A DNA stretch of 64,000 nt from Nemertoderma westbladi (lineage: Eukaryota; Animalia; Xenacoelomorpha): assembly GCA_032718475.1 (NCBI GenBank), contig JAUCBJ010008300.1:60541-124540 (forward strand). Reading direction: 5' to 3'. Of the stretch, positions 31,101-57,200 are shown piece by piece; position 1 is the first letter of the stretch; every line of letters begins with the position of its first letter. The position numbers and the translations under genes were made by a program. A model generated the notes under the pieces. That model worked only from the letters and a program-made list of their open reading frames with translations, was not told the DNA's origin and did not search any database.

Positions 31101-31845
31101 TCCAGCCGCTTTGGCAATACGATGAAACTATAATAAATATTCTAGAACACAACAATATTAACAGGAAGATAGGCTACTTATCTCTCCACTCAGATAGCCA
31201 CAGGTATGGAGGGGTGTTTTGACACAATCAAAATTTAACCATCTCCAGGGGAAAGATGAAGCAAATAACAGCTGATTACTTCTATAAATGTAAGTGTTAC
31301 CTGTTCTTATGACTTTCTTTTAAGATTCTCTATCTCGTGGAGTGGGTTAGAAGATATAAATATGAAAATCGATGTCGTTTTTTGTAAAAAATCTGAGAAA
31401 ATTTTGATAAATTATTGCTGAAAGCCCAAGGATTTTGACATGGCTTTAATACTTCATTATGTTCATGAAATAGCTGAGAAATTTGAGGTGAGTTATTGTA
31501 TTACATATTATCTTCGGCTCCAGCCGCTTTGGCAATACGATGAAACTATAATAAATATTCTAGAACACAACAATATTAACAGGGAGATAGGCTACTTATC
31601 TCTTCACTCTGAGAGCCTCAACAAGGGGGTGTTCCGACGCAATCAAATTTCATCCATCTCCAGGGGAAAGGCGAAGCAAAGAACAGCTGATTACTTTATA
31701 AATGGAAGTGTTACCTGTTCTTTGACTTTCTTTAAGATTCTCTATCTCGTGGAGTGGCTTAGAAGATATAAATATGAAAATCGATGTCGTTTTTTGTAAA
31801 AAATCTGAGGATATTTTGATAAATTATTGCTGAAAGCCCAAGGAT
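25140..31845 (+). repeat. Near-perfect 5-mer higher-order repeat, 2085-bp period, about 3.2 copies
   Basis: Matching spurious ORFs start at 25185, 27270, 29355 and 31440, exactly 2085 bp apart. Confidence 0.95.
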
Positions 31846-37800: not shown

Positions 37801-38946
37801 GATTTTTTACAAAAAACGACATCGATTTTCATATTCATGACTTCTAACCCACTCCAAGAGATAGACAATCTTAAATGAAAGTCAAAAGAGCAGGTAACAC
37901 TTACATTTATAGAAGCAATCAGCTGTTCTTTGCTTCGTCTTTCCCCTGGAGATGGATGAATTTTGATTGCGTCGGAACACCCCCTTTTTGAGGCTCTCAG
38001 AGTGAAGATATAAGTAGCCTATCTCCCTGTTAATATTGTTGTGTTCTAGAATATTTAATATAGTTTCATCGTATTGCAAAAGCGGCTGGAGCCGAAGATA
38101 ATATGTGATACAATAATTCACCTCAAATTTCTCAGCTATTTCATGAATATAATGAGTATTAAAGCCATGTCAAAATCCTTGGTGTTTTTCAGCAATAATT
38201 TATTAAAATCTCCTCTGATTTTTTACAAAAAACGACATCGACTTTCATATTCATGACTTCTAACCCACTCCAAGAGATAGACAATCTTAAATGGAAGTCA
38301 AAAGAGCAGGTAACACTTACATTTATAGAAGTAATCAGCTGTTCTTTGCTTCGTCTTTCCCCTGGAGATGGATGCATTTTGATTGTGTCAGAACACCCCC
38401 TTTTTGAGGCTCTCAGAGTGAAGAGATAAGTAGCATATCTCCCTGTTAATATTGTTGTGTTCTAGAATATTAATTATAGTTTCATAGTGTTGCCAAAGCG
38501 GCTGGAGCCAAAGATAATATGTAATGCAATAATTCACCTCAAATATCTCAGCTAGTTCTTGAATATAATGAGTATTAAATCCTTGTCAAAATCCTTGGTG
38601 TTTTTCAGCAATAATTTATTAAAATCTCCTCTGATTTTTTACAAAAAACGACATCGATTTTCATATTCATGACTTCTAACCCACTCCAAGAGATAGACAA
38701 TCTTAAATGAAAGTCAAAAGAGCAGGTAACACTTACATTTATAGAAGTAATCAGCTGTTCTTTGCTTCGTCTTTCCCCTGGAGATGGATGAATTTGATTG
38801 CGTCGGAACACCCCCTTTTTGAGGCTCTCAGAGTGAAGATATAAGAAGCCTATCTCCCTGTTAATATTGTTGTGTTCTAGAATATTTAATATAGTTTCAT
38901 CGTATTGCCAAAGCGGCTGTAGCCGAAGTTAATATGTGATACAATA
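31842..38946 (-). repeat. ~416-bp satellite array, inverted block, left of the LTR element
   Basis: Reverse complement of the same monomer; the MPKRLEP..-type spurious ORFs switch to the + strand. A local 2076-bp period is visible (36529 vs 38605). Confidence 0.98.
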
Positions 38947-40865
38947 TAAATTGGAGAGATACGCCTATTCCTACTATCGGAAGAGACGGTAACAATACCT
39001 GCAATATCCTACTGTAAAGTTTGTAAATCAAATCATAAATCCGACCTTCTCACCAAAACAGTAAACCCTAAGTAAGCGAATATATTGCAGTATCGATCTC
39101 TTTTAACCGGTGAGGCAGAAAACAGTCTACGAGCAGACAAACTTCGATAAAACAAAATCCCGCGCAGCGAATCCTAAAATCAGGCTGACTCACTGACGGA
39201 CTAAGGGGCTCGTATACTTTGCCGCGGTGTGATTTATATGGTTGGGCAAAGGGACGCTAGCTAGGTATAGAGCAGATTTGGAGATGTCTAACTAGCGAGC
39301 AAAGTGCAGTAAGGACGAAAGTTAATTTTATATATTTTGAGGTGTAAATAATTTCTAACGCGCGTGTGTTAATTCTGAACGGTCAAAGCAGTTTTGCTCC
39401 TTCACATATATAATTACTGGGTACGGTGTGCATTTTACGAATATTCTAATTTTGTAACTTGTAGGTCCAATACTCACGAATGATAAGGTCCCTTCCCCTC
39501 TTGCGTATTTCCAGGACTCAAATTCAGGCATAAGGTTAATACTACGCCCAGAATTCGGCAATTTTAGGTACCAGGTCCCTGATACTAAGAAGAGATGTGT
39601 TAGTTTACTACTGTAGGCGTACGGGTACTAATAGCTATCCTGGCTCCTATCTAGAATTTTAGTCACCCAGGTAGTCCGGGTAACTTCCTATTAGGGCGTT
39701 GGCGGGGACACGGTAGATGTTAGTATATCCCTGATAGCCTCAATTTATTTTGCGCCTAGCGTAAACTGCCCTACCGCCTGAACGGTACAATCCCAATTCA
39801 GGTGAAAACACAGCAACCCCCTAGCCTACAAGTTCTGATGTAATAGACACGGTCGTACTGCAAATAGTCGCACACACACCTGTACTTAGCAAGAGTTAAG
39901 CGTACAGTTTGCTGCACCCTAACCAATGTGTATGCCTTGTACCGGTGTGCCTACGTCCTATCTGCGTACTAGTATCTGCTCTCTCTCCCTCTCCCCCGTA
40001 GGAATATGAAGGTCTACTGCGGTTTTTCCCTGAATCAAGACAGTACAGTCCCTATGATGTAATTTTGGGCTCACAGCGTGTCACTACGTCTACCTTTGAT
40101 CTTTTGGTCTTACACTTAGGTAGCAAGGATCGAACGCTGTCTAACCTTTCAGGCGATGGGCGAATAACACTAGATGGTATTGCGGGTTGTCTCTCGTCTA
40201 CATTCCCGTGATGTTCCCGTTCATTGCTGCGGCCCGATCTCTAGCTGGCCATCTTGTCCCTGAGTTTGTTCACCGTAGTGAAACCATATTAAAACAGATA
40301 GAAAGGCTGAGAGATGTGACTAGTATTTCTGACTTTATTATAAAACATATAATAACTATTATACAATAAACAATGTAATCTGAAATAAGACAGAAAGTGA
40401 ATGATGGAAATTGAGTAGTGATTGATAACTAATGAACGCACCTTTATATACTAAATTTGTGCCGCAATCAATCGAGAAAATTCTCGATTGTTCTATGGGT
40501 TCTAACAAGGTTTTAAAGATAGCTTATTGGTCCAGCTAATACTGTATATAACTTGCACGACATTGGTTACAATCAAATAACTACAGCCTTATTGGTACAG
40601 ACAAATGCAATTAATTTGTAGCGGTTAATTTAAATTAGTTGAAATTCTGCACAAAAAATAATTCGCACTTACTAGGATTCGAACTCGATACCTACTACAC
40701 TTATAATTTCCAACGCTCTACCAACTGAGCTACTGAACCACCTGACCGATAGATGCATAATAGATAGAACCAATACGAATGAGAACTCAAAGCAATCTTT
40801 ACAAAGTTAATTCGAATAAAATAAAATTTTGAAAATCCACGGCATTTAGGGAATATAATTCTATA
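38947..40865 (-). repeat. 3' LTR (1919 bp)
   Basis: Direct repeat of 52361-54279, running TAAATTGGAG..AATTCTATA on the + strand. The right boundary is ambiguous by a few nt. Confidence 0.93.
40653..40739 (-). promoter_or_regulatory. tRNA-derived Pol III cassette (A box, B box, T6) in the 3' LTR
   Basis: The minus strand reads GGTTCAG-TAGCTCAGTTGGTAGAGC..GAGTTCGAATCC..TTTTTT. The D-arm and T-loop are tRNA-like, but the acceptor stem does not pair. Confidence 0.75.
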
Positions 40866-40873
40866 CCGCTCCA
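40866..40873 (-). other. Candidate short, weak polypurine tract
   Basis: Minus-strand TGGAGCGG immediately precedes the 3' LTR. Confidence 0.35.
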
Positions 40874-41039
40874 TGAAAACAGGATATTATCGTGCATAAA
40901 ATATACGGTTTTCACCAATAATCAATCAAACTATAGAATACTTAGGGCGTACTTACATATTTACAATTAAGTTTCAAACAATACTTCCTTTCTACGTAAT
41001 GATTCGATACAAAATAATTACAAATTCAAACTTTACGTA

Positions 41040-41680
41040 TTTAAGGCTTTACTAAGTAAGTACAATATAAATCTAAATTAAATTCACCAATATAAATCTA
41101 TTGCATCTCAGATATTGCATAAATTCAAACAATTACAAATACAAATAAATGAAAACAATAAGAAAGGCTCGCAAGTCTTCCATCTACTATTGTATCTCAA
41201 ATATTGCATAAATTCAAGTAATTACAAATACTTTCGTACCTAAATGTAGATTGCATAAGTTTTGGAATAATTACAAATATGAGTCTTTCTGAGCACAAAT
41301 TTTTCTGTCTATAAAACTTTCTCTTTAGGTACAAATACTACTTATAAAATATAAATTGCATAATATTCGGAACAATACAAATTGCATAAGTTTGGAATAA
41401 TATAAGTTGTATAAGTTCGGAATAATTACAAATATAAAATATAAATTCTTACTAAATATAAATCTTACTAACTATAAGTCTTTACTTAAATATAAATATA
41501 AACTGCATAAGTTTAGAATAATATAAACCTTTGCATCTCAAATATGAAACATAAATCTTTCAAATATAAGTTCCTTCTAAATATAAACTTTCTAAATTTC
41601 ATAAATTCGGAACAATACAAATTGCATAAGTTTTTTAAATATAAAACATATAATTCAAATAAATCACAAATCATAAGAAA
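41040..41680. repeat. Very AT-rich degenerate repeats in the element's 3' untranslated region
   Basis: Repeated ttgcataa(a/g)tt..aattacaaata motifs. Confidence 0.7.
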
Positions 41681-41716
41681 GGCCCACGAGTCTTCCGTCC
41701 ACCCTTGCCCTCCCCT

Positions 41717-43153
41717 TTATCGCTTAGTTGATCGAGCCCTGCCGCGTCCTCGAAAACTGCGCACAGGTGACTTTGCTCGCGATATGGGACTAATGGGGCG
41801 AGTCACTGGTTTACTTGGGACGTTGAGAGACGGTGCAACTATTTCCTCGCAAATTCGTCTGTTTGGCATCCCGAAACCTCGACCAATTCCTCGTGACCGA
41901 TCAGTTGTCGCTACAGTTGGTAGAACGTCTGGGAACGCGTGAGAAGCGGACGACGCAGACCCAAGAGTAGCTTGCGCCCCCTGTTGATCAGCTGGTGTAT
42001 GTCCCGATCCTCCTACTGGTTCTCTTGGAAGTGATACCGTATCCCGAGTAACTCGAATAGTCGGCTCAACTCCCTTGCGTTCTTCTACATTAATAATTTT
42101 CTTCAATTGTTGGCCCACCTTCTGGACCCGTATGATCCTACCCTGCCCGTCCTCCCGAGGGTGACGTGCAGACGGCGCAACCGGAGTGGCTGATATATTC
42201 GTCGCCTCTAGGACCTCTTCTTCCTCGAATACGCTCGCTCGTATACGTTTATGGTAAAACGCGGCTCGGTACGCCCATGCGACGGTTAACCAAGCTCCTT
42301 TGTTCCGCTTTTCAGTTCGGAAACGATCAAATTCACCATACGTGATACGATTTACGACTTTCTGAAAATTCCACGTGTTCTTGTTATCTGGGTGAATCTG
42401 TAACAGATACTCGCGCACCACTCGGAATCCGCTGTCGTGGGGCAAAATATCGACAACCTCGATAAGTTCGTCATATTGAGGCATAGCGGAGATGTATCCT
42501 TCCGACATCATCGTTTGAGGATTCACCGCCCAAAATCCAAGATGCGCTCTCATCGGAAACCGTCTTCTTTGTGCTGATACATGTTCGTCGGCTAAATCTT
42601 CCCACTCATCAAATAACTTCCTCACGAGTTTTACAGATTCGTGTTCATAAGGTATGTCTCTTAGTTGGCATTCAGATGCTCGATGTCCCTTTATATTGCA
42701 GTAAGTACACTGAGCCATAAATCTCCAGCAAGTATAAAAGGTATGAGACCCTTGATCCCCACACCATCCACAGATTAGCTGAGTCGTAGTAATGTGCTTT
42801 CCACTGCACTTTGCCATATGATGTCCAGCGACGCCACATTTACTACACATCGTATTAGCAGGGTACCACACTCGTTCGTATATAAGATCTCCAATCGGTC
42901 GAGCGCTTCCTCCCACACTATAATCGTAATCATCTGGGTCTATGGGTTGGTAGGTTTCTGAAGGTTGTATGCAAACTATAGCATCTGTTGCTTCAAGTTG
43001 TCGAATCTCCGTCTGAGATTTCTTCGGGAGGTTCCTTTCTATCTCAAGAAGTTCCTCTAAAGGATCGTCGGCGATCGTAGTAGTTACGTTGAAATCATCA
43101 CCGAGGTGACCGATAGGCGCGCGCGTCTGCCGTGATTCATCCGTAATCTCCAC
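41717..43153 (-). CDS. Accessory protein with three CCHC zinc knuckles and a basic RG-containing tail (478 aa)
   Basis: Knuckles CSKCGVAGHHMAKC, CGWCGDQGSHTFYTC and CTYCNIKGHRASEC; C-terminus RSFRGRGRARSTKR. The listed start is GTG and the frame is open from ~43204, so the true start is uncertain. Confidence 0.8.
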   Translation of the reverse strand: MEITDESRQTRAPIGHLGDDFNVTTTIADDPLEELLEIERNLPKKSQTEIRQLEATDAIVCIQPSETYQPIDPDDYDYSVGGSARPIGDLIYERVWYPANTMCSKCGVAGHHMAKCSGKHITTTQLICGWCGDQGSHTFYTCWRFMAQCTYCNIKGHRASECQLRDIPYEHESVKLVRKLFDEWEDLADEHVSAQRRRFPMRAHLGFWAVNPQTMMSEGYISAMPQYDELIEVVDILPHDSGFRVVREYLLQIHPDNKNTWNFQKVVNRITYGEFDRFRTEKRNKGAWLTVAWAYRAAFYHKRIRASVFEEEEVLEATNISATPVAPSARHPREDGQGRIIRVQKVGQQLKKIINVEERKGVEPTIRVTRDTVSLPREPVGGSGHTPADQQGAQATLGSASSASHAFPDVLPTVATTDRSRGIGRGFGMPNRRICEEIVAPSLNVPSKPVTRPISPISRAKSPVRSFRGRGRARSTKR

Positions 43154-44139
43154 GATACGTTTTGAGCAAAGTTTATGCTCTCGAAAACTTCCGGTGTCAT
43201 CTCCTTAGCTGAAGTTTGATCGTGTGACGTCCAATGGCAAGGTAGGCTCGCGAGTCTTCCACCCCATTCTTCCATCTCACCTTTCTCGAAAGCCTTGTAG
43301 GCTCTGTATAGGCTAAGAGCTTCTTTCTTTTCGCGGGTTGACTGATTCGCCTCGTCCAGCGTAAGTTCAAATACATCGGGTTCAACAACCTTAGGTGGGT
43401 AAATGACAGTTTCTCCCGCCTTTGGTCCGGTCATAGCAAATGAATGATATGGATTCGATAAAGGATACCCTCCTTCCTGGTAGCGTAGTTGTTGATGATT
43501 CGAACACCTCGCCAATATCGGTTCGGGATTTTCCTTATTCAAACGCATCGGAATCGCATTTCGTTGTTCGCGCATACAAGAACCGCATTGATAATAAAGT
43601 TTATAAACTGAAAATGCTTCCTTGGTTTCTCTATCGTCCCCTCGAGTTCGTCTGTAAAGATGCATTCCATCGAATTCATCGCGTACCGCAGGCATAGGTT
43701 CATGCGCCTTCAGGTATTGCATGGTATGATACAAACGACTAATTTCAGTATCGGGGTCTTCGCTAATGTCTCCCGTGTCACACAAGGCATCGTACGGGTA
43801 AAGTTCGTTGAAGGTTTGGCGCAAACTTTCGATTCTTTCGTTCAATGCGTTTTGCCTTCTCTTTAATACGTTCGAGTCATATTTAGTTCTCGCGAGTTTC
43901 GCTGTACTTTCCGATAATTCTTTTATACCAAATATAGTGTAATCCTTGGCTCCAAATCTTTCGAATGGCGCTGCTGCCTCCTCTTGGATATCATATCCCC
44001 ATCTCGGCTCTCCTTGTATCCCTTTCTCCATAATTAGGGGTGTAGTTACATAATCATTACTACTAGAGGGAATACAACAGAGTTTGTGGTTAGTTGTGAG
44101 GAGACGTGAGAGTTTCGTCTGCCTTTTGGGCTTCGACAA
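43084..44139 (-). CDS. Accessory ORF of unknown function (351 aa; first ATG at 44031)
   Basis: Long open frame with protein-like composition, a coiled-coil-like segment and a CGSC..CSNH possible metal site. It overlaps the next ORF. Confidence 0.65.
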   Translation of the reverse strand: MSKPKRQTKLSRLLTTNHKLCCIPSSSNDYVTTPLIMEKGIQGEPRWGYDIQEEAAAPFERFGAKDYTIFGIKELSESTAKLARTKYDSNVLKRRQNALNERIESLRQTFNELYPYDALCDTGDISEDPDTEISRLYHTMQYLKAHEPMPAVRDEFDGMHLYRRTRGDDRETKEAFSVYKLYYQCGSCMREQRNAIPMRLNKENPEPILARCSNHQQLRYQEGGYPLSNPYHSFAMTGPKAGETVIYPPKVVEPDVFELTLDEANQSTREKKEALSLYRAYKAFEKGEMEEWGGRLASLPCHWTSHDQTSAKEMTPEVFESINFAQNVSWRLRMNHGRRARLSVTSVMIST

Positions 44140-44690
44140 CGCTCTAACCTCCTACCCATAGCCTAAGATCTAAGGTTTCTTTAATGACACGCTGCTTCTT
44201 ATCTAAAATATTTTGCCGAAGTAAAACGAATTTGGGCTAAACTGGCCGTGAGTCTAAAATACTCACTTTTTGATCCCAAACTATTATCAGAAAATAAGCA
44301 GTCAAGAATTAGTAATAAATATAGGGGAGTCTATTTTGTCGTAACTTATTGAAACAAGACCGTGTAAAATTTAATTAAAATTTTAAGAAAGGCTCGCAAG
44401 TCTTCCTCTCTTGTTTCTCTAATTTTAAGTTCCACCCGACTGTACCCTGAAATCTATTCACTGGAGAAAATTTTAAAAATTTTTCAAATCCAAATGGATT
44501 GTCTAAAATTTCGAAAATGTCTCAATATTGTGAGTTCCAAGTAGAATTCCATTTCTTATACCTACAAATCCCGCTCCTATGTGACACATAAGGGTACTAC
44601 CCTCAATGTTCACATATAAAGACAATGGAATTCTACCGCTGTCCTTACTACGGTGTACAGGTACGTGGAAATCTATTTGTAAACTCCTAA

Positions 44691-47600
44691 TTATTTACTA
44701 GTATTAGGTGGAGATTTGTAGTCTCCAGACTCGTTACGAGTCTCTTCAAGAAGTACGAGACGTTGAGTCGGTCTGTCTACTGTGCGACCGTCAATTGTCC
44801 GTACCGTCACAGTTCTTGTCACTCCATCCATAGATGGATGTGTGGCTAAAATGACACCTGTTATCCAGAAGCGTCTTTTCAGATTCACTTCTGCCAACAG
44901 CACGTGATCTCCCGGCTTTAATGCGCGGGTGTTATTGTACCAGTTTGTTCTGGCAGAAATAGAGGGCAAATAATGGTTTTGCCATATTTCCCAGAATTTG
45001 TTAGCCAGTAGTTGCGTGATTTTCCACGCTTTTTTCCCGTAACTATCGCTTTCCATTGGAATGGAAATCGGCGTTAATGTCGTCGGTGCCTGCATAAGCA
45101 GGTGTGCCGGTGTTAAAGCAAACTGGGATTGTTTGTCATCGGGTACTAATACTATTGGTCTAGTATTTAGTATTGCCTCGATTTCAACAAAAAATGTTGT
45201 CAGTTGGTCGTCTGTTAATATGTGGTTTACTGGAATGACCTTTGCCATTGCTGTCTTTATAGATCTAATCAGTCTCTCCCAGACTCCGCCTCTCCAAGGA
45301 CTATCTGGAGGATTAAACTTCCAAACAATCTTGTGAGGTTGCAGTTCGTTCGAGATTTGATCATGATCTAATCTCTTAAAGGCTCTAGCAATCTCATTCC
45401 GAGCACCAACAAAGTTTGTCCCTTGGTCTGAGTACAAGCATTTTACTAGTCCGCGTCTAGCGATAAATCGCCGCAGTGCTAGTATAAACGCGTTGGTGGA
45501 AAGATCCATCACACGTTCAATGTGAACTGCCCTACTGGACATACATGTGAAAATCAGTCCCCAGCGTTTTACTAGTATACGTCCACGTTTAGTATGTATG
45601 GGACCAAAGCAATCAATTCCAGTCTCTGTAAAAGGTGGTCTGAATGCTTGAAGTCGTGCTTGTGGTAGTTCACTCATTTCTTGGGTACCTATTCTAGAAT
45701 GTACCTTTTTACAAATAATACACGTACGTGTCACTGAACTTAACGCTTTACTGGGTCTAATTAATACAAATCTAGTACGTAAGTAGGAAAGACAGTGGTG
45801 TCTTCCAGCGTGTTTCAGATGTAAATGTGCGTCCAGTATCATTGCACGTTGTAGTTCGTGATGTTGCGGTATTATTATTGGGTACCTAAAGTTCGTGTTA
45901 AAGTCAATGTTTTGAAGCCGAGATTTATGACAAATTAAGCCATTATAAATAATCGGACTCCAACTCAGTATCGGTGACGACTTGATTGGTTGACCTTGAT
46001 TTATAGATGTGAATTCGCGCGCGAAATATCGCAGTTGGTAATGGCGAATTAATTTAATCTCACACCTGTCAATCTCAGCCAATGTAAGTCGACGTGTAAA
46101 GTCACGTTTGCCTTTAACGTATTGTACAAAACGTACAATCCACGCTAATTTTCGGCAAGCGTTTGACCAAGAGTCTGTTAAGTTTACAATACGGTCGACA
46201 TAAGTATTTGTGACGTCATCAGGTAAGTCAATTGGGAATTTGGAAGGTTTTAAATTACTAGAAGGGCCCACGGGTCCGCCGGCAAGTATTCCCTTGTTGA
46301 CTGTTGATCCGTCCGGGTCTACAAGTAATTTGTCCTTCTTTGTCTTCTTACCTTGATTGTCAGTACTTTGTAAGTCGATCGTTAATGGTGGTTTGAACTC
46401 TATGGGATCAGTGGGTTTCGCTAAACTTATTTTTCTGCCGACATTAATCCCAGGTCTCGCCATAGGTTGCAGGTTCGGTATGTCTCTTGAGCGCAAAGTA
46501 ACACCTGTATTTACATTAGCGTAGGTACTACCCACATCTGTAATACATGAGGTTTCACCGTGCTTATGGTTGCTCAAGTGTGTCAAAATTGGTAGTTTGT
46601 CAATACAAGGCCGCTCCAATAGGGAAACTGCGGCTTTATTGTTAGTCAATACATTACTAGTGTCTAGTCGACTGTCTAGTAGTGTGTCTGGCGATACGTC
46701 TGGTAACGTATCTGGTTGTTTGTCAATAGAAGGCCGCTCCAATAGGGAAACTGCGGCTTTACTGTTTGTCAGTGCGTTACTAACGTCTGGTGGAACATTT
46801 TGTGACATGTCTGTCAAAACGTCTGGTTGACCGTCTAGTAACGTGTCTGGTTGACCGTCTGGCGATATGTCTGGTGTAGAAAGGCTCGCAAGTCTTCCTC
46901 TCTTGACCTTTGAAGTTATATCCTTCCATTTCGCCTTCGGTTTTTTCTTGAGTTTTGCCGCCGTTGTCTTTTTCTTTGTCTCGACGGGCACTGTTGAGGT
47001 TGTTGGGGTAGGTAGACTCGCAAGCCTATCATCTGTCGTCGATGGAGTCTCTAGCTGACTCGTCTTCTCCCCAAGTTCTAAACTCCGCTGGTGGGTTAGC
47101 TGCTCCTTGTGACTTATCATACTAGTTACACGTCTGTGATGTTTTGTCGACTGTAGCGTAGTATGGTTCACGTCGTGTGAAAAGGAATGAATTGAGTTTG
47201 TAGTCAATAAACTACATGTACTCTGTACGTCGTCTTCCTCGTCACTTACGTCTAGTGTGCGCACAGGCGCTCGAGTATACCACCCTATCGGCGTTCTGCA
47301 GGCGTATGCGTTTCCTGCTACAACTGCCGATGGTCTGGTTTCCCACACCTGGTGTAGGTTGAATTGGTCCGTCCCGATCAGCATTGCTACCGATCTATAA
47401 TTGACAGGACATTCGGGTACACCAAGGTGTCTGAAATACTTACGGTCCTCCAGAGATTGTTCCGGCACTGGACCTAGTAGGTTACTAAAGTCCTTCGTGG
47501 CCGCAAAGGTTAGATCTCTAAAGGGCAACAAAGACCTCTCCCTCTCGCTGTGTTGCGATTTTGGAAGAAGAGAGTCTAAGTCCAACTTAACTCGTGTCAC

Positions 47601-50600
47601 TGGTATTGCACGCTGGCCGTGCATACTACTTACTGTATAACTTACGTGCTTACCTTGTCTAAGATCTGTTACGACGTCAGCTATCTTTTCATCTACGTAA
47701 CTGTGAGATGAGGCTGAGTCTAGAATCGCGTAAATCCTCTTACTCCCTTTTGTGCCAGTAACTTTAATTGGGATTACACTGAATCCCTTCAGTTGGTCAG
47801 TGGTCAGGAGCGCGATTGACGGTTGTTCGTCTCCATTTGAATATTCGTCGTCTTCTGATTCTTCGTCCGACGATCCGGATTGTTCTGAAAAGCAATCCTC
47901 TATATGGGTCACGAAAGTCGGAGTCGTTTTCGATTCCCGTTTTCGGTAAGCCGCATCACATCTCGCTGCTGCTTCCGGGTGTTCCCTGGCGAAGCGTTTC
48001 GTCGGCGTGTGGCTGTCTGTGTGGAGCAGACCGTCGTGGTTGCGTCCACAGGATGGACAAGTGTCGGTATTTGGGCAATCCTTACGGACGTGTCCGTGTC
48101 GCGTACACCGCCAACAAGAGTCCAGTGGCCGTATCTGCAGCCGTCGTTCTTCTGAGTTCAACTCGCGAAATTGTCGACAACCTCGTAACTTGTGACCAAT
48201 ATACCGCTTACCTAAATGTTCGCAGTATTGGCAGCCGTTGAAGTCGGTGCTGAGTTGCTGTCTCGTCTGTTTCGTCCCAATGGGCGCAGATACTCTATTA
48301 CCGTCTGAGAATTGTCGTGATTCCGTCGGTGTGGCGTAAGTGGCCGTCTTTGTGGATGTTGTCTGGGGTTTTTGTCGGTTAGAGGATGGCAGTGTGATCC
48401 CTTCTGCCACGATGTGCTGGTCGGTATAGTTAGATCGAGTTTCTACTACCGCCTCCCTGGATATTAAAAGGTACACATCTTCTAATTTTAGGAATCCTCC
48501 TCGCTCCTCTCGCTGGTATTCGACCTTCCTCCACTCCCGACGAAGTCGATGGTGGAGTCGTCCTATTATCTTTAATAGGACTGTAGGGGTATTTCCGTAA
48601 TCAAGTTGTCCAATTGATCTTAAGGTAGTGATAGCGTTCTTAATCTCGTCAGCCAGTTTTAGTAAGTCGACGGGTTTAGTGATAGCCCCTCCCTTACAGA
48701 GTTCTTCTATTACTGACCTGGCCATACTCACTGTACCTCCGTATATCGAAGTCAAACGATCGTACGCTAGTTCGAAAGCGTCTGGTACACCGACGAAAGT
48801 CTCCGCCAAACGTTTAGGTTCTCCTGACAACGTTTGGAGCAAGTAATTGAACTTCTCTCGTGATGTAAAGGCGCACACGGCGATCTGGGATTCAATATAG
48901 TCTACGAAGGTATGCCAGTGTTTTGAGCTACCGGAGAACTTCGGTGGTTGTTGTACCGGCAATCCCTGTCTGGCTGCGAATTTCGCTATCTCCTCGGCAA
49001 CGTTCAGAGTTTCGCGTCCTTGGTTGGTAGTCTGGTTGATGTTCTCCCTTCTAGGCGCTTTTCCCTGATACGATGTGGGGTTTGAAGGTACCGGTCTTTG
49101 TGGTCCCTTCGGGTGTCTATTGTGTTCGAATTCGGAATTTCTCGAACTGTCGGTGTAACCTTCCTCCAGACGTTCCTCAATCCGGGCCAACTTGTTGACA
49201 ATGTCGGCGAACTGTTGCGCACCGATCGCGCCCGCTGGTGGTAACGCCTTCTGTGTCGGTGTATTCTGTGGAGGATTATCTGCAAAGGAGTTGTCTGAAC
49301 GCTCGCGTTTATATTCATCGGCCGCCCCTGTTCTAAATACCTCGCGTTTCGGGTAATCCGATTCGCTCGAAGTACTACTATCATCTGGATATGGTGGTCG
49401 ACGTGCTCGCGTTCGTTGCGTCGTACGAGTTCTAACGGCTCGTTTCGGAACATCGTCCACTGATCTCCGTTGTTCGGTAGGCTCACAAGTCTTCCTCGAA
49501 GTCGTAGATTGCGATGTAAACTGGTTGAACGGTCGCGTCTCCACTGTTCTCCGTTGTTCGGTAGGCTCACAAGTCTTCCTCGAAGTCGTAGATTGCGATG
49601 TAAACTGGTTGAACGGTCGCGTCTCCACTGTTCTCCGTTGTTCGGTAGGCTCACAAGTCTTCCTCGAAGTCGTAGATTGCGATGTAAACTGAACCGGTGG
49701 GCGAATGACAGCATTTGAGACAACTGGCCTTGTAGGTCGAAACGTCATTGGGTAAGCGTAATGTGTAACGGGTTTAGGTGTCAAAGGTGGACTCACCTGT
49801 TTTGTCGTCAGTAGCGCAGGTCCGGTCAATAAACTACTACGATCCGTAATCGGTGGGTTACTTACCTTGACTTTCGGAATGGGCGACGACGTTGCTCTTG
49901 GCGGTGTAAACTCGTCCGGAATAACAAACCTGTGGTCCGTCGCACCATGGATAGGAGAAATGTTACTACTACCCGCAATCGAAACAGGTTCCTTAGTCGT
50001 AACCGGTGCAAACATATGAGTTACTTGTGGGAATCGTTGACACACGTCTTTTACTAATTGTCGTTCCCGTCCGGGTGCTCCTACGCTTCCTTCCTTCTTC
50101 CGTTCCTGAATTTGGCGATGTCTTACCTCTAACTGGTCCAAATCATGTCCGTCGCGAGATCTCATCGATCGATCGCGGGCTAGAAGATCCAGATTTTCCT
50201 TAGTTTCGGCTAATTCTCTCGCCCTCTTCTCAAGTTCGAAACGAAGTTTAACTTCCTTTTCTCGTTGTTCCGTTTGTTGTTGTTGCGCCTCGAACTCTGC
50301 TTGTCGTATCGCTTGTTGGGCTTTTATTTGCCGTGTCTTCATCTCGACTCTGGCTTCCGAAACTACTCTTTGTCGCTCTAACTCTGCCGCAGCCGTTTGT
50401 CGCTCTAACTCTGCCGCAGCCGTTTGTCGCTCTAACTCAGCCGCTGCAGCTGCCGCTGCCGTTTGTCGCTCTAACTCGGCCGCTGCCGCTGCCGTTTGTC
50501 GCTCTAACTCGGCTGTTGCCGTTCGTTGCGCTAACTCGGCCGTTGCCGCTTGTTGGGCAATGTCCAACTCTAACCTTTCCATTTCGGCCGCTTCGAGTTC

Positions 50601-51557
50601 GGCTTGTTCCTGCAGATGAGAGATTCTCGCTACATTCGCAACACGTATTTTCTCTTCCTCTACTGCTGTTTGTATCATTAGAAGTTGAGCTTGTTCTTCT
50701 ATCTCGTGTTGCTGTCTGTAGAACTGCTGCTGTTGTCGAGCAACTTCTGACGTGACTATACTTCCTTCGCAGATTTCGCTACGAATACTTACCAATGATT
50801 GATTTAGTATTCCCGGTGCCGATTCGATTTGTGCGAATGAAGTTTCCCTCGTGTATTCCGGCACGGTTTCCAAATCGCCGACGTCTTCGCCGCACATGCG
50901 TAAGTGGTCCGTCAGATGTTTCAATTGTCCATCCAGTCGGTACAATTCCTGTTCTTCCTCGGGTTGTAATAATTCGTCCGAAACTGACTCACCTAACAAC
51001 TGGTCCGCTTGTTCCTGTTGTATCTGTCTAATCGTCGACTTAAACTGAATCAGTTTCTCTCTAGTGATCATTAGTTTCTCGAGGATTCTAAGTTGAGTAT
51101 CCATGTCCTGTCTCTGTCTAGCTAGATCTTGTAGGCCAACTAGATTATCTACGGACTTATATACTTTACTCTGTACTCTAACCTGGAGGGTGTAGAACTC
51201 GAATCGAGACATCGGAGCGGTCAACCCGTCTAATATGCGTTGGCCTTCTCCAATACTCCTGGTTATATGCGCCATGTATCCACCGACGCTTCTAACCACA
51301 CTTTCTGTGCTTCCTGCTGAACTTACCAATTCCGTTTCCCTATATCTAGGTTGCGGAACAGTTAGAAAGTCCTCGGTCCTGCCGTCGCCTCGTACTACGG
51401 CATCCGGTACTCCCGTTGGATGTACTGGTGACGCACACGGTGTAGGTTCGGTAGGCTCGCGAGTCTTCCCCTGTGGTTCTTCCGCCGCTGACTTATCCGC
51501 GTCACATGAGTCATAGTCGGTTTGTGTATTCTTCGTATAGTCTTGTTTGTCACTCAT
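44691..51557 (-). CDS. BEL/Pao Gag-protease-integrase polyprotein without RT or RNase H (2288 aa)
   Basis: In order: coiled-coil N-terminus; DUF1759-like Gag (PPKFSGSSKHWHTF..LSGEPKRL); three BEL-type Cys/His knuckles (CQYC..H..C, CWRCTRHGHVRKDC, CPSCGRNHDGLLH); aspartic protease AILDSASSHSYV; integrase HHCC (HLHLKH..CIIC); DDE core (GIDCFGP, SDQGTNF, GGVWERLI); DUF5641-like tail (NKFWEIWQNHYL). No YxDD motif seen between protease and integrase. Confidence 0.95.
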   Translation of the reverse strand: MSDKQDYTKNTQTDYDSCDADKSAAEEPQGKTREPTEPTPCASPVHPTGVPDAVVRGDGRTEDFLTVPQPRYRETELVSSAGSTESVVRSVGGYMAHITRSIGEGQRILDGLTAPMSRFEFYTLQVRVQSKVYKSVDNLVGLQDLARQRQDMDTQLRILEKLMITREKLIQFKSTIRQIQQEQADQLLGESVSDELLQPEEEQELYRLDGQLKHLTDHLRMCGEDVGDLETVPEYTRETSFAQIESAPGILNQSLVSIRSEICEGSIVTSEVARQQQQFYRQQHEIEEQAQLLMIQTAVEEEKIRVANVARISHLQEQAELEAAEMERLELDIAQQAATAELAQRTATAELERQTAAAAAELERQTAAAAAAAELERQTAAAELERQTAAAELERQRVVSEARVEMKTRQIKAQQAIRQAEFEAQQQQTEQREKEVKLRFELEKRARELAETKENLDLLARDRSMRSRDGHDLDQLEVRHRQIQERKKEGSVGAPGRERQLVKDVCQRFPQVTHMFAPVTTKEPVSIAGSSNISPIHGATDHRFVIPDEFTPPRATSSPIPKVKVSNPPITDRSSLLTGPALLTTKQVSPPLTPKPVTHYAYPMTFRPTRPVVSNAVIRPPVQFTSQSTTSRKTCEPTEQRRTVETRPFNQFTSQSTTSRKTCEPTEQRRTVETRPFNQFTSQSTTSRKTCEPTEQRRSVDDVPKRAVRTRTTQRTRARRPPYPDDSSTSSESDYPKREVFRTGAADEYKRERSDNSFADNPPQNTPTQKALPPAGAIGAQQFADIVNKLARIEERLEEGYTDSSRNSEFEHNRHPKGPQRPVPSNPTSYQGKAPRRENINQTTNQGRETLNVAEEIAKFAARQGLPVQQPPKFSGSSKHWHTFVDYIESQIAVCAFTSREKFNYLLQTLSGEPKRLAETFVGVPDAFELAYDRLTSIYGGTVSMARSVIEELCKGGAITKPVDLLKLADEIKNAITTLRSIGQLDYGNTPTVLLKIIGRLHHRLRREWRKVEYQREERGGFLKLEDVYLLISREAVVETRSNYTDQHIVAEGITLPSSNRQKPQTTSTKTATYATPTESRQFSDGNRVSAPIGTKQTRQQLSTDFNGCQYCEHLGKRYIGHKLRGCRQFRELNSEERRLQIRPLDSCWRCTRHGHVRKDCPNTDTCPSCGRNHDGLLHTDSHTPTKRFAREHPEAAARCDAAYRKRESKTTPTFVTHIEDCFSEQSGSSDEESEDDEYSNGDEQPSIALLTTDQLKGFSVIPIKVTGTKGSKRIYAILDSASSHSYVDEKIADVVTDLRQGKHVSYTVSSMHGQRAIPVTRVKLDLDSLLPKSQHSERERSLLPFRDLTFAATKDFSNLLGPVPEQSLEDRKYFRHLGVPECPVNYRSVAMLIGTDQFNLHQVWETRPSAVVAGNAYACRTPIGWYTRAPVRTLDVSDEEDDVQSTCSLLTTNSIHSFSHDVNHTTLQSTKHHRRVTSMISHKEQLTHQRSLELGEKTSQLETPSTTDDRLASLPTPTTSTVPVETKKKTTAAKLKKKPKAKWKDITSKVKRGRLASLSTPDISPDGQPDTLLDGQPDVLTDMSQNVPPDVSNALTNSKAAVSLLERPSIDKQPDTLPDVSPDTLLDSRLDTSNVLTNNKAAVSLLERPCIDKLPILTHLSNHKHGETSCITDVGSTYANVNTGVTLRSRDIPNLQPMARPGINVGRKISLAKPTDPIEFKPPLTIDLQSTDNQGKKTKKDKLLVDPDGSTVNKGILAGGPVGPSSNLKPSKFPIDLPDDVTNTYVDRIVNLTDSWSNACRKLAWIVRFVQYVKGKRDFTRRLTLAEIDRCEIKLIRHYQLRYFAREFTSINQGQPIKSSPILSWSPIIYNGLICHKSRLQNIDFNTNFRYPIIIPQHHELQRAMILDAHLHLKHAGRHHCLSYLRTRFVLIRPSKALSSVTRTCIICKKVHSRIGTQEMSELPQARLQAFRPPFTETGIDCFGPIHTKRGRILVKRWGLIFTCMSSRAVHIERVMDLSTNAFILALRRFIARRGLVKCLYSDQGTNFVGARNEIARAFKRLDHDQISNELQPHKIVWKFNPPDSPWRGGVWERLIRSIKTAMAKVIPVNHILTDDQLTTFFVEIEAILNTRPIVLVPDDKQSQFALTPAHLLMQAPTTLTPISIPMESDSYGKKAWKITQLLANKFWEIWQNHYLPSISARTNWYNNTRALKPGDHVLLAEVNLKRRFWITGVILATHPSMDGVTRTVTVRTIDGRTVDRPTQRLVLLEETRNESGDYKSPPNTSK
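49460..49692 (-). repeat. In-frame 84-bp tandem repeat x3 within gag
   Basis: QFTSQSTTSRKTCEPTEQRR is repeated three times. Confidence 0.95.
50368..50550 (-). repeat. In-frame 27-36-bp tandem repeat (AAAELERQT) within the gag coiled coil
   Basis: The motif tttgtcgctctaactc recurs about 6 times. Confidence 0.92.
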
Positions 51558-51763: not shown

Positions 51764-52349
51764 CAACAAATAAATCGGATAACGATATGCGTTATCAAAA
51801 GGTAAATTAAATACAATAATACGGACTAATTCAGCAATGAACAAAGAAATCATACGGAATGCATAAATACTTGAGACAGTGGAACCCACAATAATTTTAA
51901 CTAATACGGTAATGCCTAACTTATTTATGCAACTTTTCGAACTCACCCACTCCAATAATTCTCCAGAAAAACAGATTCCCAGATACAAACCGAACGTGAA
52001 CCTTTCCGTTTTTAACGTTGCGGACGAAACGCGATTTTCCCAACCAAAGTTGTTGGGTTATCTATCTCCCAAACTTGCTAAACACGGTCTTGCTCCCGTT
52101 ACAGTCTAGAAATGAGTTCTGAATCCTGAAAAACAAAAGAGTTAGGTTTTACTTTACGAAATTTTGTACCGGTACAATATGGTATTTAAACCCTTTTAAA
52201 CACCGGTATTCAATTCCAAAATATTTTACACGCGGTTCAAATCAAATTTTATTTCAAAAAATTAGCACTTAGCTAATCAAATATAAATTTTTACCTCAAA
52301 ATACAAAATTTTCAAATAACTTTAGTCCTACCGAACCGTAGAAGTAAAA

Positions 52350-52360
52350 CATATTCCTAC
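52350..52360 (-). other. Non-tRNA primer-binding-site candidate GTAGGAATATG
   Basis: It abuts the 5' LTR, lacks the TGG start of a tRNA PBS, and is the exact complement of LTR 53412-53422 on the same RNA strand. Confidence 0.7.
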
Positions 52361-54279
52361 TAAATTGGAGAGATACGCCTATTCCTACTATCGGAAGAGA
52401 CGGTAACAATACCTGCAATATCCTACTGTAAAGTTTGTAAATCAAATCATAAATCCGACCTTCTCACCAAAACAGTAAACCCTAAGTAAGCGAATATATT
52501 GCAGTATCGATCTCTTTTAACCGGTGAGGCAGAAAACAGTCTACGAGCAGACAAACTTCGATAAAACAAAATCCCGCGCAGCGAATCCTAAAATCAGGCT
52601 GACTCACTGACGGACTAAGGGGCTCGTATACTTTGCCGCGGTGTGATTTATATGGTTGGGCAAAGGGACGCTAGCTAGGTATAGAGCAGATTTGGAGATG
52701 TCTAACTAGCGAGCAAAGTGCAGTAAGGACGAAAGTTAATTTTATATATTTTGAGGTGTAAATAATTTCTAACGCGCGTGTGTTAATTCTGAACGGTCAA
52801 AGCAGTTTTGCTCCTTCACATATATAATTACTGGGTACGGTGTGCATTTTACGAATATTCTAATTTTGTAACTTGTAGGTCCAATACTCACGAATGATAA
52901 GGTCCCTTCCCCTCTTGCGTATTTCCAGGACTCAAATTCAGGCATAAGGTTAATACTACGCCCAGAATTCGGCAATTTTAGGTACCAGGTCCCTGATACT
53001 AAGAAGAGATGTGTTAGTTTACTACTGTAGGCGTACGGGTACTAATAGCTATCCTGGCTCCTATCTAGAATTTTAGTCACCCAGGTAGTCCGGGTAACTT
53101 CCTATTAGGGCGTTGGCGGGGACACGGTAGATGTTAGTATATCCCTGATAGCCTCAATTTATTTTGCGCCTAGCGTAAACTGCCCTACCGCCTGAACGGT
53201 ACAATCCCAATTCAGGTGAAAACACAGCAACCCCCTAGCCTACAAGTTCTGATGTAATAGACACGGTCGTACTGCAAATAGTCGCACACACACCTGTACT
53301 TAGCAAGAGTTAAGCGTACAGTTTGCTGCACCCTAACCAATGTGTATGCCTTGTACCGGTGTGCCTACGTCCTATCTGCGTACTAGTATCTGCTCTCTCT
53401 CCCTCTCCCCCGTAGGAATATGAAGGTCTACTGCGGTTTTTCCCTGAATCAAGACAGTACAGTCCCTATGATGTAATTTTGGGCTCACAGCGTGTCACTA
53501 CGTCTACCTTTGATCTTTTGGTCTTACACTTAGGTAGCAAGGATCGAACGCTGTCTAACCTTTCAGGCGATGGGCGAATAACACTAGATGGTATTGCGGG
53601 TTGTCTCTCGTCTACATTCCCGTGATGTTCCCGTTCATTGCTGCGGCCCGATCTCTAGCTGGCCATCTTGTCCCTGAGTTTGTTCACCGTAGTGAAACCA
53701 TATTAAAACAGATAGAAAGGCTGAGAGATGTGACTAGTATTTCTGACTTTATTATAAAACATATAATAACTATTATACAATAAACAATGTAATCTGAAAT
53801 AAGACAGAAAGTGAATGATGGAAATTGAGTAGTGATTGATAACTAATGAACGAATCGCACCTTTATATACTAAATTTGTGCCGCAATCAATCGAGAAAAT
53901 TCTCGATTGTTCTATGGGTTCTAACAAGGTTTTAAAGATAGCTTATTGGTCCAGCTAATATATAACTTGCACGACATTGGTTACAATCAAATAACTACAG
54001 CCTTATTGGTACAGACAAATGCAATTAATTTGTAGCGGTTAATTTAAATGAGTTGAAATTCTGCACAAAAAATAATTCGCACTTACTAGGATTCGAACTC
54101 GATACCTACTACACTTATAATTTCCAACGCTCTACCAACTGAGCTACTGAACCACCTGACCGATAGATGCATAATAGATAGAACCAATACGAATGAGAAC
54201 TCAAAGCAATCTTTACAAAGTTAATTCGAATAAAATAAAATTTTGAAAATCCACGGCATTTAGGGAATATAATTCTATA
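52361..54279 (-). repeat. 5' LTR (1919 bp)
   Basis: Direct repeat of 38947-40865, upstream of gag on the minus strand. Confidence 0.93.
54067..54153 (-). promoter_or_regulatory. tRNA-derived Pol III cassette in the 5' LTR
   Basis: Same A box, B box and T6 as 40653-40739. Confidence 0.75.
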
Positions 54280-57200
54280 CAATAATTCACCTCAAATTTC
54301 TCAGCTATTTCATGAATATAATGAGTATTAAAGCCATGTCAAAATCCTTGGGCTTTCAGCAATAATTTATCAAAATATTCTCAGATTTTTTACAAAAAAC
54401 GACATCGATTTTCATATTTATAACTTCTAACCCACTCCACGAGATAGAGAATCTTAAACGAAAGTCATAAGAACAGGTAACACTTACATTTATAGAAGTA
54501 ATCAGCTGTAATTTGCTTCGTCTTTCCCCAGGAGATGGATGAATTTTGATTGCGTCGGAACACCCCCTTTCTGAGGCTCTCAGAGTGAAGATATAAGTAG
54601 CCTATCTCCCTGTTAATATTATTGTGTTCTAGAATATTTAATATAGTTTCGTCGCATTGCCAAAGCGGCTGGAGCCGAACTTAATATGTGATACAATAAT
54701 TCACCTCAAATTTCTCAGCTATTTCATGAATATAATGAGTATTAAAGCCATGTCAAAATCCTTGGTGTTTTTCAGCAATAATTTATTAAAATCTCCTCTG
54801 ATTTTTTACAAAAAACGACATCGATTTTCATATTCATGACTTCTAACCCACTCCAAGATATAGTCAATCTTAAATGGAAGTCAAAAGAGCAGGTAACACT
54901 TACATTTATAGAAGTAATCAGCTGTTCTTGACTTCGTCTTTCCCCTGGAGATGGATGCATTTTGATTGTGTCAGAACACCCCCTTTTTGAGGCTCTCAGA
55001 GTGAAGAGATAAGTAGCATATCTCCCTGTTAATATTGTTGTGTTCTAGAATATTAATTATAGTTTCATCGTGTTGCCAAAGCGGCTGGAGCCAAAGATAA
55101 TATGTAATGCAATAATTTACCTCAAATATCTCAGCTAGTTCATGAATATAATGAGTATTAAATCCTTGTCATAATCCTTGGTGTTTTTCAGCAATAATTT
55201 ATTAAAATCTCCTCTGATTTTTTACAAAAAACGACATCGATTTTCATATTCATGACTTCTAACCCACTCCAAGAGATAGACAATCTTAAATGAAAGTCAA
55301 AAGAGCAGGTAACACTTACATTTATAGAAGCAATCAGCTGTTCTTTGCTTCGTCTTTCCCCTGGAGATGGATGAATTTTGATTGCGTCGGAACACCCCCT
55401 TTTTGAGGCTCTCAGAGTGAAGATATAAGTAGCCTATCTCCCTGTTAATATTGTTGTGTTCTAGAATATTTAATATAGTTTCATCGTATTGCAAAAGTGG
55501 CTGGAGCCGAACTTAATATGTGATACAATAATTCACCTCAAATTTCTCAGCTATTTCATGAATATAATGAGTATTAAAGCCATGTCAAAATCCTTGGTGT
55601 TTTTCAACAATAATTTATTAAAATCTCCTCTGATTTTTTACAAAAAACGACATCGATTTTCATATTCATGACTTCTAACCCACTCCAAGAGATAGACAAT
55701 CTTAAATGGAAGTCAAAAGAGCAGGTAACACTTACATTTATAGAAGTAATCAGCTGTTCTTGACTTCGTCTTTCCCCTGGAGATGGATGCATTTTGATTG
55801 TGTCAGAACACCCCCTTTTTGAGGCTCTCAGAGTGAAGAGATAAGTAGCATATCTCCCTGTTAATATTGTTGTGTTCTAGAATATTAATTATAGTTTCAT
55901 CGTGTTGCCAAAGCGGCTGGAGCCAAAGATAATATGTAATGCATTAATTTACCTCAAATATCTCAGCTAGTTCATGAATATAATGAGTATTAAATCCTTG
56001 TCAAAATCCTTGGTGTTTTTGAGCAATAATTTATTAAAATCTCCTCTGATTTTTTACAAAAAACGACATCGATTTTCATATTCATGACTTCTAACCCACT
56101 CCAAGAGATAGACAATTTTAAATGAAAGTCAAAAGAGCAGGTAACACTTATATTTATAGAAGTAATCAGCTGTTCTTTGCTTCGTCTTTCCCCTGGAGAT
56201 GGATGAATTTGATTGCGTCGGAACACCCCCTTTTTGAGGCTCTCAGAGTGAAGATATAAGTAGCCTATCTCCCTGTTAATATTGTTGTGTTCTAGAATAT
56301 GTATTATAGTTCATCGTATTGCCAAAGCGGCTGGAGCCGAACTTAATATGTGATACAATAATTAACCTCAAATTTCTCAGCTATTTCATGAATATAATGA
56401 GTATTAAAGCCATGTCAAAATCCTTGGTGTTTTTCAGCAATAATTTATTAAAATCTCCTCTGATTTTTTACAAAAAACGACATCGACTTTCATATTCATG
56501 ACTTCTAACCCACTCCAAGAGATAGAGAATCTTAAATGGAAGTCAAAAGAGCAGGTAACACTTACATTTATAGAAGTAATCAGCTGTTCTTTGCTTCGTC
56601 TTTCCCCTGGAGATGGATGCATTTTGATTGTGTCAGAACACCCCCTTTTTGAGGCTCTCAGAGTGAAGAGATAAGTAGCATATCTCCCTGTTAATATTGT
56701 TGTGTTCTAGAATATTAATTATAGTTTCATCGTGTTGCCAAAGCGGCTGGAGCCAAAGATAATATGTAATGCAATAATTCACCTCAAATATCTCAGCTAG
56801 TTCTTGAATATAATGAGTATTAAATCCTTGTCAAAATCCTTGGTGTTTTTCAGCAATAATTTATTAAAATCTCCTCTGATTTTTTACAAAAAACGACATC
56901 GATTTTCATATTCATGACTTCTAACCCACTCCAAGAGATAGACAATCTTAAATGAAAGTCAAAAGAGCAGGTAACACTTACATTTATAGAAGTAATCAGC
57001 TGTTCTTTGCTTCGTCTTTCCCCTGGAGATGGATGAATTTGATTGCGTCGGAACACCCCCTTTTTGAGGCTCTCAGAGTGAAGATATAAGAAGCCTATCT
57101 CCCTGTTAATATTGTTGTGTTCTAGAATATTTAATATAGTTTCATCGTATTGCCAAAGCGGCTGTAGCCGAAGTTAATATGTGATACAATAATTCACCTC

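Follow-up and report, generated by a model that had tools for sequence, protein, structure and literature searches.

A BEL/Pao-derived retrotransposon family without recognisable reverse transcriptase or RNase H, probably replicating with enzymes supplied in trans

The usual picture of non-autonomous long terminal repeat (LTR) retrotransposons is one of empty shells, such as LARD and TRIM, or of recent, decaying deletion copies. Unlike LARD and TRIM, which have no coding capacity, the element described here holds three intact open reading frames (ORFs) with an excess of silent differences. It is a 15.3-kb LTR retrotransposon on the minus strand of a 64-kb stretch of Nemertoderma westbladi DNA (contig JAUCBJ010008300.1, positions 60,541 to 124,540), called the window below; all element coordinates are window positions. 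The element is inserted in a satellite of 415-416 bp and is organised in the order LTR, 800-nucleotide (nt) leader, ORF1, ORF2, ORF3, LTR. It probably represents an abundant BEL/Pao-derived family that lacks reverse transcriptase (RT) and RNase H (RH) and that replicates with both enzymes provided in trans by another element.

Among the closest described systems, IAP 1-delta-1, a class II endogenous retrovirus of the mouse, is non-autonomous and is the most active subtype, using Gag and Pol in trans and its own fusion protein in cis (PMC6466679). As described there, it resembles the present element in that an internal in-frame loss created a fusion ORF, with the element's own protein acting in cis and the polymerase in trans. 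It differs, in the same account, in that a 1.9-kb deletion removed part of gag and pol, there is no filler and full-length partners are known; the present element has lost only RT and RNase H, carries 349 unrelated residues instead and keeps the integrase (IN).

In wheat and barley, RLG_Sabrina and RLG_WHAM with RLG_Wilma, and BARE2 with BARE1, are high-copy elements that have depended on partners over the long term; Sabrina and WHAM lack RT and integrase, BARE2 lacks Gag, and partners are recognised by shared primer-binding sites, LTR termini and activity times (PMC9744471). Tos17 of rice lacks gag (PMC3977881). As in the present case, whole high-copy LTR populations are without part of the coding set; these are plant Gypsy and Copia elements, and none is described in the two accounts cited as losing only RT and RH while keeping Gag, protease (PR) and IN. 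Non-autonomous Troyka elements are a further described case (PMC12440569). TARE1 was considered as a parallel and rejected, since it is autonomous according to its description (PMC3701649). Like the trans-complemented IAP 1-delta-1/BARE2 type, the present element is missing one essential function and its remaining ORFs are intact and constrained. A non-exhaustive literature search returned no abundant animal BEL/Pao family that has lost only RT/RNase H and has a drifting in-frame linker, constrained Gag, PR and IN, and two extra ORFs. Non-autonomy is widespread among LTR elements; the loss of RT and RH alone, with a filler in their place, appears to be a new form of it.

The RT-RNase H slot of ORF1

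All 2288 codons of ORF1, read on the minus strand from 51557 to 44691, are open, as the earlier note on this DNA had stated. The frame and its parts, numbered in amino acids (aa), are as follows.

44691-51557, minus strand: ORF1, 2288 codons, open; N-terminal coiled-coil and low-complexity region, Gag, knuckle, protease, filler, integrase.
48525-48938, minus strand: Gag core, DUF1759, aa 874-1011, Pfam E 5.9e-11.
47259-47795, minus strand: protease, about aa 1255-1433, with D1280 in ILDSAS, then LIGTDQ and TPIGWY; aligned by BLASTP to the relative P0004 up to aa 1433.
46212-47258, minus strand: filler, aa 1434-1782, 349 residues, boundaries set by homology.
46089-46211, minus strand: pre-integrase segment, aa 1783-1823, matched by hmmsearch to positions 644-684 of the RT-RH profile, i-E 0.001.
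44742-46088, minus strand: integrase, aa 1824-2272, 41% identical to P0004 over 450 aa.

Relatives were collected by a near-length search of a large protein collection (453 matches among 7249 candidates), and the best 120 of the 453 were used. These are BEL/Pao polyproteins from many animals, at most 41% identical to ORF1, with only Gag/PR and IN covered. In the alignment with the full-length P0004, ORF1 aa 852-1433 correspond to P0004 307-836 and aa 1824-2272 to P0004 1546-1993; between these blocks lie 710 aa in P0004 against 391 unrelated aa here.

The absence of RT and RNase H motifs, claimed from the letters alone in the earlier note, was borne out by three kinds of search. Pfam matched only DUF1759, a weak zf-CCHC zinc knuckle (aa 1147-1163), the Integrase_H2C2 zinc domain (aa 1900-1954) and DUF5641 (aa 2177-2270) in ORF1, with no RT, RNase H, Peptidase_A17 or DUF1758, and 533 aa around the filler matched no Pfam family even at E 10. 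When the RT-RH part of P0004 was compared with the window by tblastn, nothing was found below E 0.5. Finally, an RT-RH profile of 711 positions, built from 92 of 97 relatives and run with filters off against all six frames of the window and against ORF1, gave a sole match, at profile positions 644-684, which corresponds to aa 1783-1823, the segment after RNase H. Neither the filler, the N-terminal 850 aa, ORF2 nor ORF3 contained any RT-like sequence detectable with Pfam, the RT-RH profile or PDB sequences.

The catalytic residues of the retained enzymes are in place, again as had been claimed. The catalytic Asp of the protease is kept and is Asp in 47 of 47 aligned relatives, and the integrase DDE residues D1982, D2045 and E2094 (numbers counted from motif starts) lie in columns that are each invariant in 97 of 97 relatives. 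Pfam DUF1758 and Peptidase_A17 were unmatched in the protease, which is placed between Gag and the RT slot by the P0004 alignment up to aa 1433. The features of BEL/Pao elements found here are this aspartic protease, an LTR pair with a short target-site duplication, a DUF1759 Gag, and an integrase with DDE residues and DUF5641; RT and RNase H in the order PR-RT-RH-IN were not found. Judged from these alignments, the element descends from BEL/Pao through its Gag, PR and IN without being a complete member, because the RT/RH domains by which the group is classified are missing.

Clean in-frame deletions of RT-RH were present in two of the 120 relatives, P0057 and P0060, both from other animals. 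In these proteins, as here, the ORF is open and Gag/PR is joined to the pre-integrase segment, with the 3' break at profile positions 636 and 596, respectively, compared with 644 here. They differ in that the joins are direct, without filler, and in that each is a single-member cluster, without evidence of forming a family.

The filler agrees to within about 60 bases with the limits proposed in the earlier note, and the basic patch and flanking landmarks (TPIGWY, aa 1422-1427, 47277-47294; WSNACRKLAWIVRF, aa 1797-1810, 46128-46169, in the pre-integrase segment) were found where they had been placed. Its internal features are listed here.

46590-46827, minus strand: tandem duplication of 123 bp (41 codons); 46590-46704 and 46713-46827 are 80% identical.
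46923-46976, minus strand: basic patch KKKTTAAKLKKKPKAKWK, ORF1 aa 1528-1545.
46877-46897, minus strand: filler copy of the 21-nt sense-strand motif GAAGACTTGCGAGCCTTTCTT, with one mismatch.

T, L, S, D, K and P are abundant in the filler, and no similarity was detected when it was compared with the 120 relatives, the RT-RH profile, Pfam and PDB sequences. A protein search labelled "shorter", using aa 1380-1850, also gave nothing at E <= 0.001. A lone locus (L001) obtained from a metagenome scan with the filler was rejected as a chance match, having one shared 8-residue word and stops in frame. The filler frame contains no stop codons, whereas the remaining two frames of the sense strand contain 26 and 27. 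AlphaFold2 in single-sequence mode gave aa 1410-1836 a mean pLDDT of 39 and almost no secondary structure, a model that would fit, if weakly, a disordered linker.

Part of the filler can be traced within the element. The internal 123-bp duplication reported earlier is present, and GAAGACTTGCGAGCCTTTCTT has five sense-strand matches with at most 3 mismatches, against 0 expected: one each downstream of ORF1, close to where ORF2 and ORF3 meet, downstream of ORF3, in the 3' untranslated part and in the filler. The copies outside the filler lie on the minus strand at 41160-41180, 41675-41695, 43239-43259 and 44385-44405, and a 28-nt exact match joins 46878-46905 with 44386-44413. This motif of 21-28 nt was the sole match when an origin of the filler was sought in other frames and parts of the element. 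The motif may act as a signal in cis, or may mark a site of template switching from which the filler was partly built. The earlier description of novel sequence filling the gap therefore stands in part: the filler is unlike the relatives, Pfam and PDB, but it consists partly of an internal duplication, and a motif in it recurs in non-coding parts of the element.

Weaker copies of GAAGACTTGCGAGCCTTTCTT were also seen in the 84-nt repeats of the N-terminal 850 aa of ORF1. This region (49456-49707, 50357-50577) contains three tandem units of 84 nt (28 aa) and an Ala-rich array whose period is 27 nt.

Sibling copies and selection

Sibling copies were identified in public sequencing runs that contain the stretch, namely X1, X3 and X4, from three studies under organism A, and X5, from a fourth study under organism B, with contigs placed at >=85% likeness to the window. 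None of the runs is listed as RNA data, although X5 may be. The counts on the 11.5-kb internal part of the element and on the 1.5 kb around the filler were as follows.

X1: 10211 contigs on the internal part, 1387 around the filler.
X3: 6095 contigs on the internal part, 882 around the filler.
X4: 482 contigs on the internal part, 35 around the filler.
X5: 43 contigs on the internal part, 11 around the filler.

In X1, X3 and X5 the per-base contig density of the filler stretch was equal to or higher than that of the whole internal part. The X1 contigs fell into identity classes of 99+, 95-99, 90-95 and <90 in numbers of 3630, 3548, 2253 and 780 for the internal part, and 488, 500, 315 and 84 for the filler stretch. 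The junction between protease and filler was bridged by contigs in X1 (records 4-7), X3 (records 15-16) and X5 (record 31), and that between filler and integrase in X4 (record 17), X1 (record 1) and X5 (records 26-28). Because contig density and divergence match the rest of the element and the junctions are bridged, the filler is part of the multiplied unit. Filler-bearing contigs at 85-100% identity in four runs indicate that the defective form itself multiplied, and by this measure the filler is estimated to date back about as far as most of the diversification within the family. The earlier view that this is not a private post-insertion deletion is upheld, the filler being joined to protease and integrase in many diverged copies from four runs and studies under two organism labels.

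Differences among the copies were classified from the best-supported 40 of 505 in the internal part and the best-supported 40 of 57 in the filler stretch, which together gave 67 distinct differences, 63 of them within ORFs.

Gag-PR: 4 silent, 0 replacing.
Pre-integrase segment: 3 silent, 1 replacing.
IN: 4 silent, 0 replacing.
ORF2: 4 silent, 1 replacing.
ORF3: 3 silent, 0 replacing.
Gag-PR, pre-integrase segment, IN, ORF2 and ORF3 combined: 18 silent, 2 replacing.
N-terminal 850 aa: 5 silent, 3 replacing.
Filler: 13 silent, 22 replacing.

Given the observed transition bias, about 29% of differences would be silent under neutrality. The combined ratio of 18:2 departs strongly from this expectation (binomial p = 2e-8), a marked silent excess that agrees with constraint on the retained genes, whereas the filler ratio of 13:22 does not (p = 0.2); the two groups differ from each other (Fisher test, p = 1.7e-4). 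Small indels point the same way: among the 12 of 27 that were listed, 11 are confined to non-coding sequence (leader, ORF1-ORF2 spacer and 3' untranslated part), and the one within an ORF is 3 nt long. None was listed at 46000-47500 for the contigs over the filler stretch. Two length variants of the filler were observed, one of 123 nt in an X5 contig that carries a single duplication unit (joint 46606->46730) and one in X4 with a net insertion of 36 nt, by count; both are multiples of three. Taken together, these comparisons of contig sequences indicate that Gag-PR, IN, ORF2 and ORF3 are constrained and that the filler is near-neutral, yet with its frame kept.

The N-terminal repeats of ORF1 also vary in length among sibling contigs, by net -93 and -51 nt, in frame by count.

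Some contigs depart from the window sequence at defined points. At 46981, within the filler, this was seen in a 519-letter X4 contig (240 unlike letters) and in five X1 contigs; at 43157-43161, between ORF2 and ORF3, contigs of X1, X4 and X5 depart in both directions. Because of these departures, sister forms with other modules must exist. The siblings that depart at 46981 have the first ~93 filler residues in common with the window, and their unrelated sequence begins just upstream of the basic patch. In a 1887-letter X4 contig, ORF2 runs on into other sequence at 43157-43161, and the part at 40845-43148 is far deeper in X4 contigs than the rest of the element. The greater depth hints that a module of ORF3, 3' end and LTR is common to another family.

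These observations bear on the alternative that survives best, which is nevertheless unlikely. According to it, the copies are an ordinary passenger family, RT-less deletion derivatives mobilised wholly by closely related full-length masters with the same Gag, PR, IN and LTRs; the silent bias would be inherited from these RT-bearing masters, and the derivatives' own proteins would be unneeded. The divergence of sister forms at 46981, inside the filler, and at 43157-43161 is in keeping with such derivatives, as is the occurrence of simple in-frame RT-RH deletions in other animals (the two of 120 relatives noted above). In Drosophila, young short copies of the BEL/Pao element rooA are proposed to have spread passively via intact helpers (PMC3087523). 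As described there, however, the rooA copies have about a quarter of the full length, and stop codons occur in some of them, whereas the frames here are intact and constrained. In contig density and divergence, moreover, the filler matches Gag, PR and IN, which makes the RT-less form as old as most of the family's spread. Dispensable frames should also decay; instead, the ORFs are largely spared by the indels listed, and together ORF2 and ORF3 show 7 silent differences to 1 replacing.

ORF2, ORF3, the LTRs and the insertion site

Two further frames lie downstream of ORF1.

43084-44031, minus strand: ORF2, 315 aa; no family, no relatives and no confident fold.
41717-42850, minus strand: ORF3, 377 aa from the first ATG; three CCHC knuckle-like motifs, no known relatives.

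Upstream of its first ATG, the ORF3 frame stays open for another 118 codons, back to 43204. With respect to ORF2 it is the -1 frame, and it overlaps the end of that ORF by 120 nt in a gag-pol-like arrangement. A -1 frameshift between the two was considered and rejected, as no X XXY YYZ slippery heptamer occurs within the overlap. AlphaFold2 in single-sequence mode gave ORF2 a pLDDT of 34. The ESM Atlas yielded no usable match for ORF2 and, for ORF3, only zinc-knuckle leads below 0.9; a protein search with the ORF3 frame gave nothing at E <= 0.001, a PDB sequence search with filler, ORF2 and ORF3 nothing below E 0.29, and PHROGs nothing useful.

It is highly improbable that the element is autonomous, with a strongly divergent or unrelated polymerase concealed in one of the two downstream ORFs, the N-terminal 850 aa or the filler. 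Such an enzyme might be looked for in ORF2 and ORF3, which are under purifying selection and belong to no known family, and the -1 overlap between the two resembles that of gag with pol. Against this, no RVT, RdRP or RNase H Pfam family was matched in any piece at E up to 1-10, and both the BEL/Pao RT-RH profile and the PDB sequences were without a match. The filler is predicted to have no structure, the ORF2/ORF3 overlap has no slippery heptamer, and CCHC knuckles are the sole recognisable feature of ORF3.

The ends of the element, the flanking duplication and the segment that follows the 5' LTR are as follows.

38947-40866, minus strand: 3' LTR, 1920 bp, aligned globally to the 5' LTR; the last base is ambiguous with the target-site duplication.
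52361-54280, minus strand: 5' LTR, 1920 bp; contains the arm 53412-53438 that pairs with the segment after the LTR.
38942-38946, no strand: target-site duplication, left copy, CAATA, 4-6 bp given one ambiguous base per side.
54280-54284, no strand: target-site duplication, right copy, from flank comparison.
52334-52360, minus strand: segment after the 5' LTR, 27 nt at the primer-binding-site position, complementary to LTR 53412-53438.

Global alignment of the LTR pair showed 1 substitution and two 5-bp indels over 1920 bp, and when both flanks were set against a 416-bp satellite unit without an insert, the target-site duplication came out at 4-6 bp, so that the near-identical LTRs and the duplication claimed earlier are both present. 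These two features mark the integration of the element as recent. The LTR termini (38947/40866 and 52361/54280) are not TG...CA; if the target duplication is 5 bp, they read TA...TA on the sense strand.

That the element is a single dead copy, deleted and rearranged privately after insertion, is scarcely credible: the window holds one copy only, but across four runs the contigs that contain the filler and span its junctions number in the hundreds to thousands, no stop interrupts the 2288 codons and the LTRs are nearly identical.

The 27 nt after the 5' LTR contain no TGG-type tRNA site. Their complementarity to the LTR (inverted repeat I1) comprises an 11-nt perfect core and 74% over 27 nt; an 11-mer complement within 1920 nt has an estimated chance of about 5e-4. 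The LTR arm starts 842 nt into the 1920-nt LTR and has its 3' LTR counterpart at 39998-40024. The arms pair in both the minimum free energy and the centroid folds of the natural 1113-nt stretch, a weak check because the stretch was chosen to begin and end at the arms. On these grounds 52334-52360 is a candidate self-priming site, which an RT-bearing partner would be expected to have as well. Tf1 and Tf2 use self-primed reverse transcription, and the first 11 nt of the transcript serve as the pairing partner in Tf1. The present element would be like them in that a segment at the primer-binding-site position is complementary to the element's own upstream, LTR-derived RNA, and unlike Tf1 in that its pairing arm is found 842 nt into the LTR.

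A 19-nt purine run follows the LTR arm. A T-arm-like string in the LTR was rejected as a recognisable tRNA because Rfam and ARAGORN, run over the element, gave no matches. In the remainder of the window the 415-416-bp satellite fills most of the sequence (2005-12031, 17847-31845, 33137-38946 and 54277-63998) and its orientation flips near 32 kb. Other inserts and shorter-period arrays, with 163-nt and 32-118-nt repeats, are found at about 12.3-17.8 kb, and a 207-aa ORF at 16254-16877 has no family match.

Replication in trans and its significance

The explanation that best accommodates the filler, the sibling copies and the selection data remains an abundant BEL/Pao-derived family that has no RT/RNase H and probably obtains both in trans from another element. 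The borrowing of RT is inferred by elimination, and several points weigh against the explanation as a whole. The sibling evidence consists of tables of short contigs and not of full-length copies, X1 is possibly the source sample of the window and would then offer no independent support, and in X4 the filler stretch has about half the contig density seen over the internal part as a whole. The silent and replacing counts rest on the best-supported subset of differences and likewise on short contigs. The protease motif (47709-47726) reads D-S-A and not D-S-G, although Ala is found in 4 of 47 relatives as well, with Gly in 43 of 47. As ORF2 and ORF3 have no known fold, a polymerase beyond recognition could lie in them. 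No RT-bearing partner was seen in the contig tables, no partner search of the genome having been made, and one of the sister forms could itself carry RT and be a possible partner.

Under replication in trans, the RNA of the element and its own Gag-PR-filler-IN polyprotein would be packaged together with the RT-containing polyprotein of a compatible helper. The helper enzyme would then make the cDNA, possibly by self-priming in view of the complementarity between the LTR and the segment that follows the 5' LTR, and insertion would fall to the integrase that the element encodes. The filler would serve only as a flexible in-frame tether that keeps the integrase translated, which would explain its drift in sequence and length without loss of frame.

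A bolder form of this proposal is offered tentatively and is judged the less probable of the two. Here the family would be a long-lived, semi-autonomous lineage that outsources only RT and primes itself, with Gag, protease, integrase and the two orphan ORFs maintained by selection, the filler being a fast-evolving disordered tether that possibly recruits the foreign RT, and it would have out-multiplied its autonomous relatives. If this is true, the element would be parasitic on a polymerase that belongs to another element, and would not be a copy in decay.

If borne out on full-length copies, the family would offer a natural system for asking which proteins of an LTR element act in cis (capsid, protease and integrase) and which can be shared (RT/RNase H). 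It would also bear on how a helper polymerase enters a foreign particle, and on how such partnerships shape very repeat-rich animal genomes.

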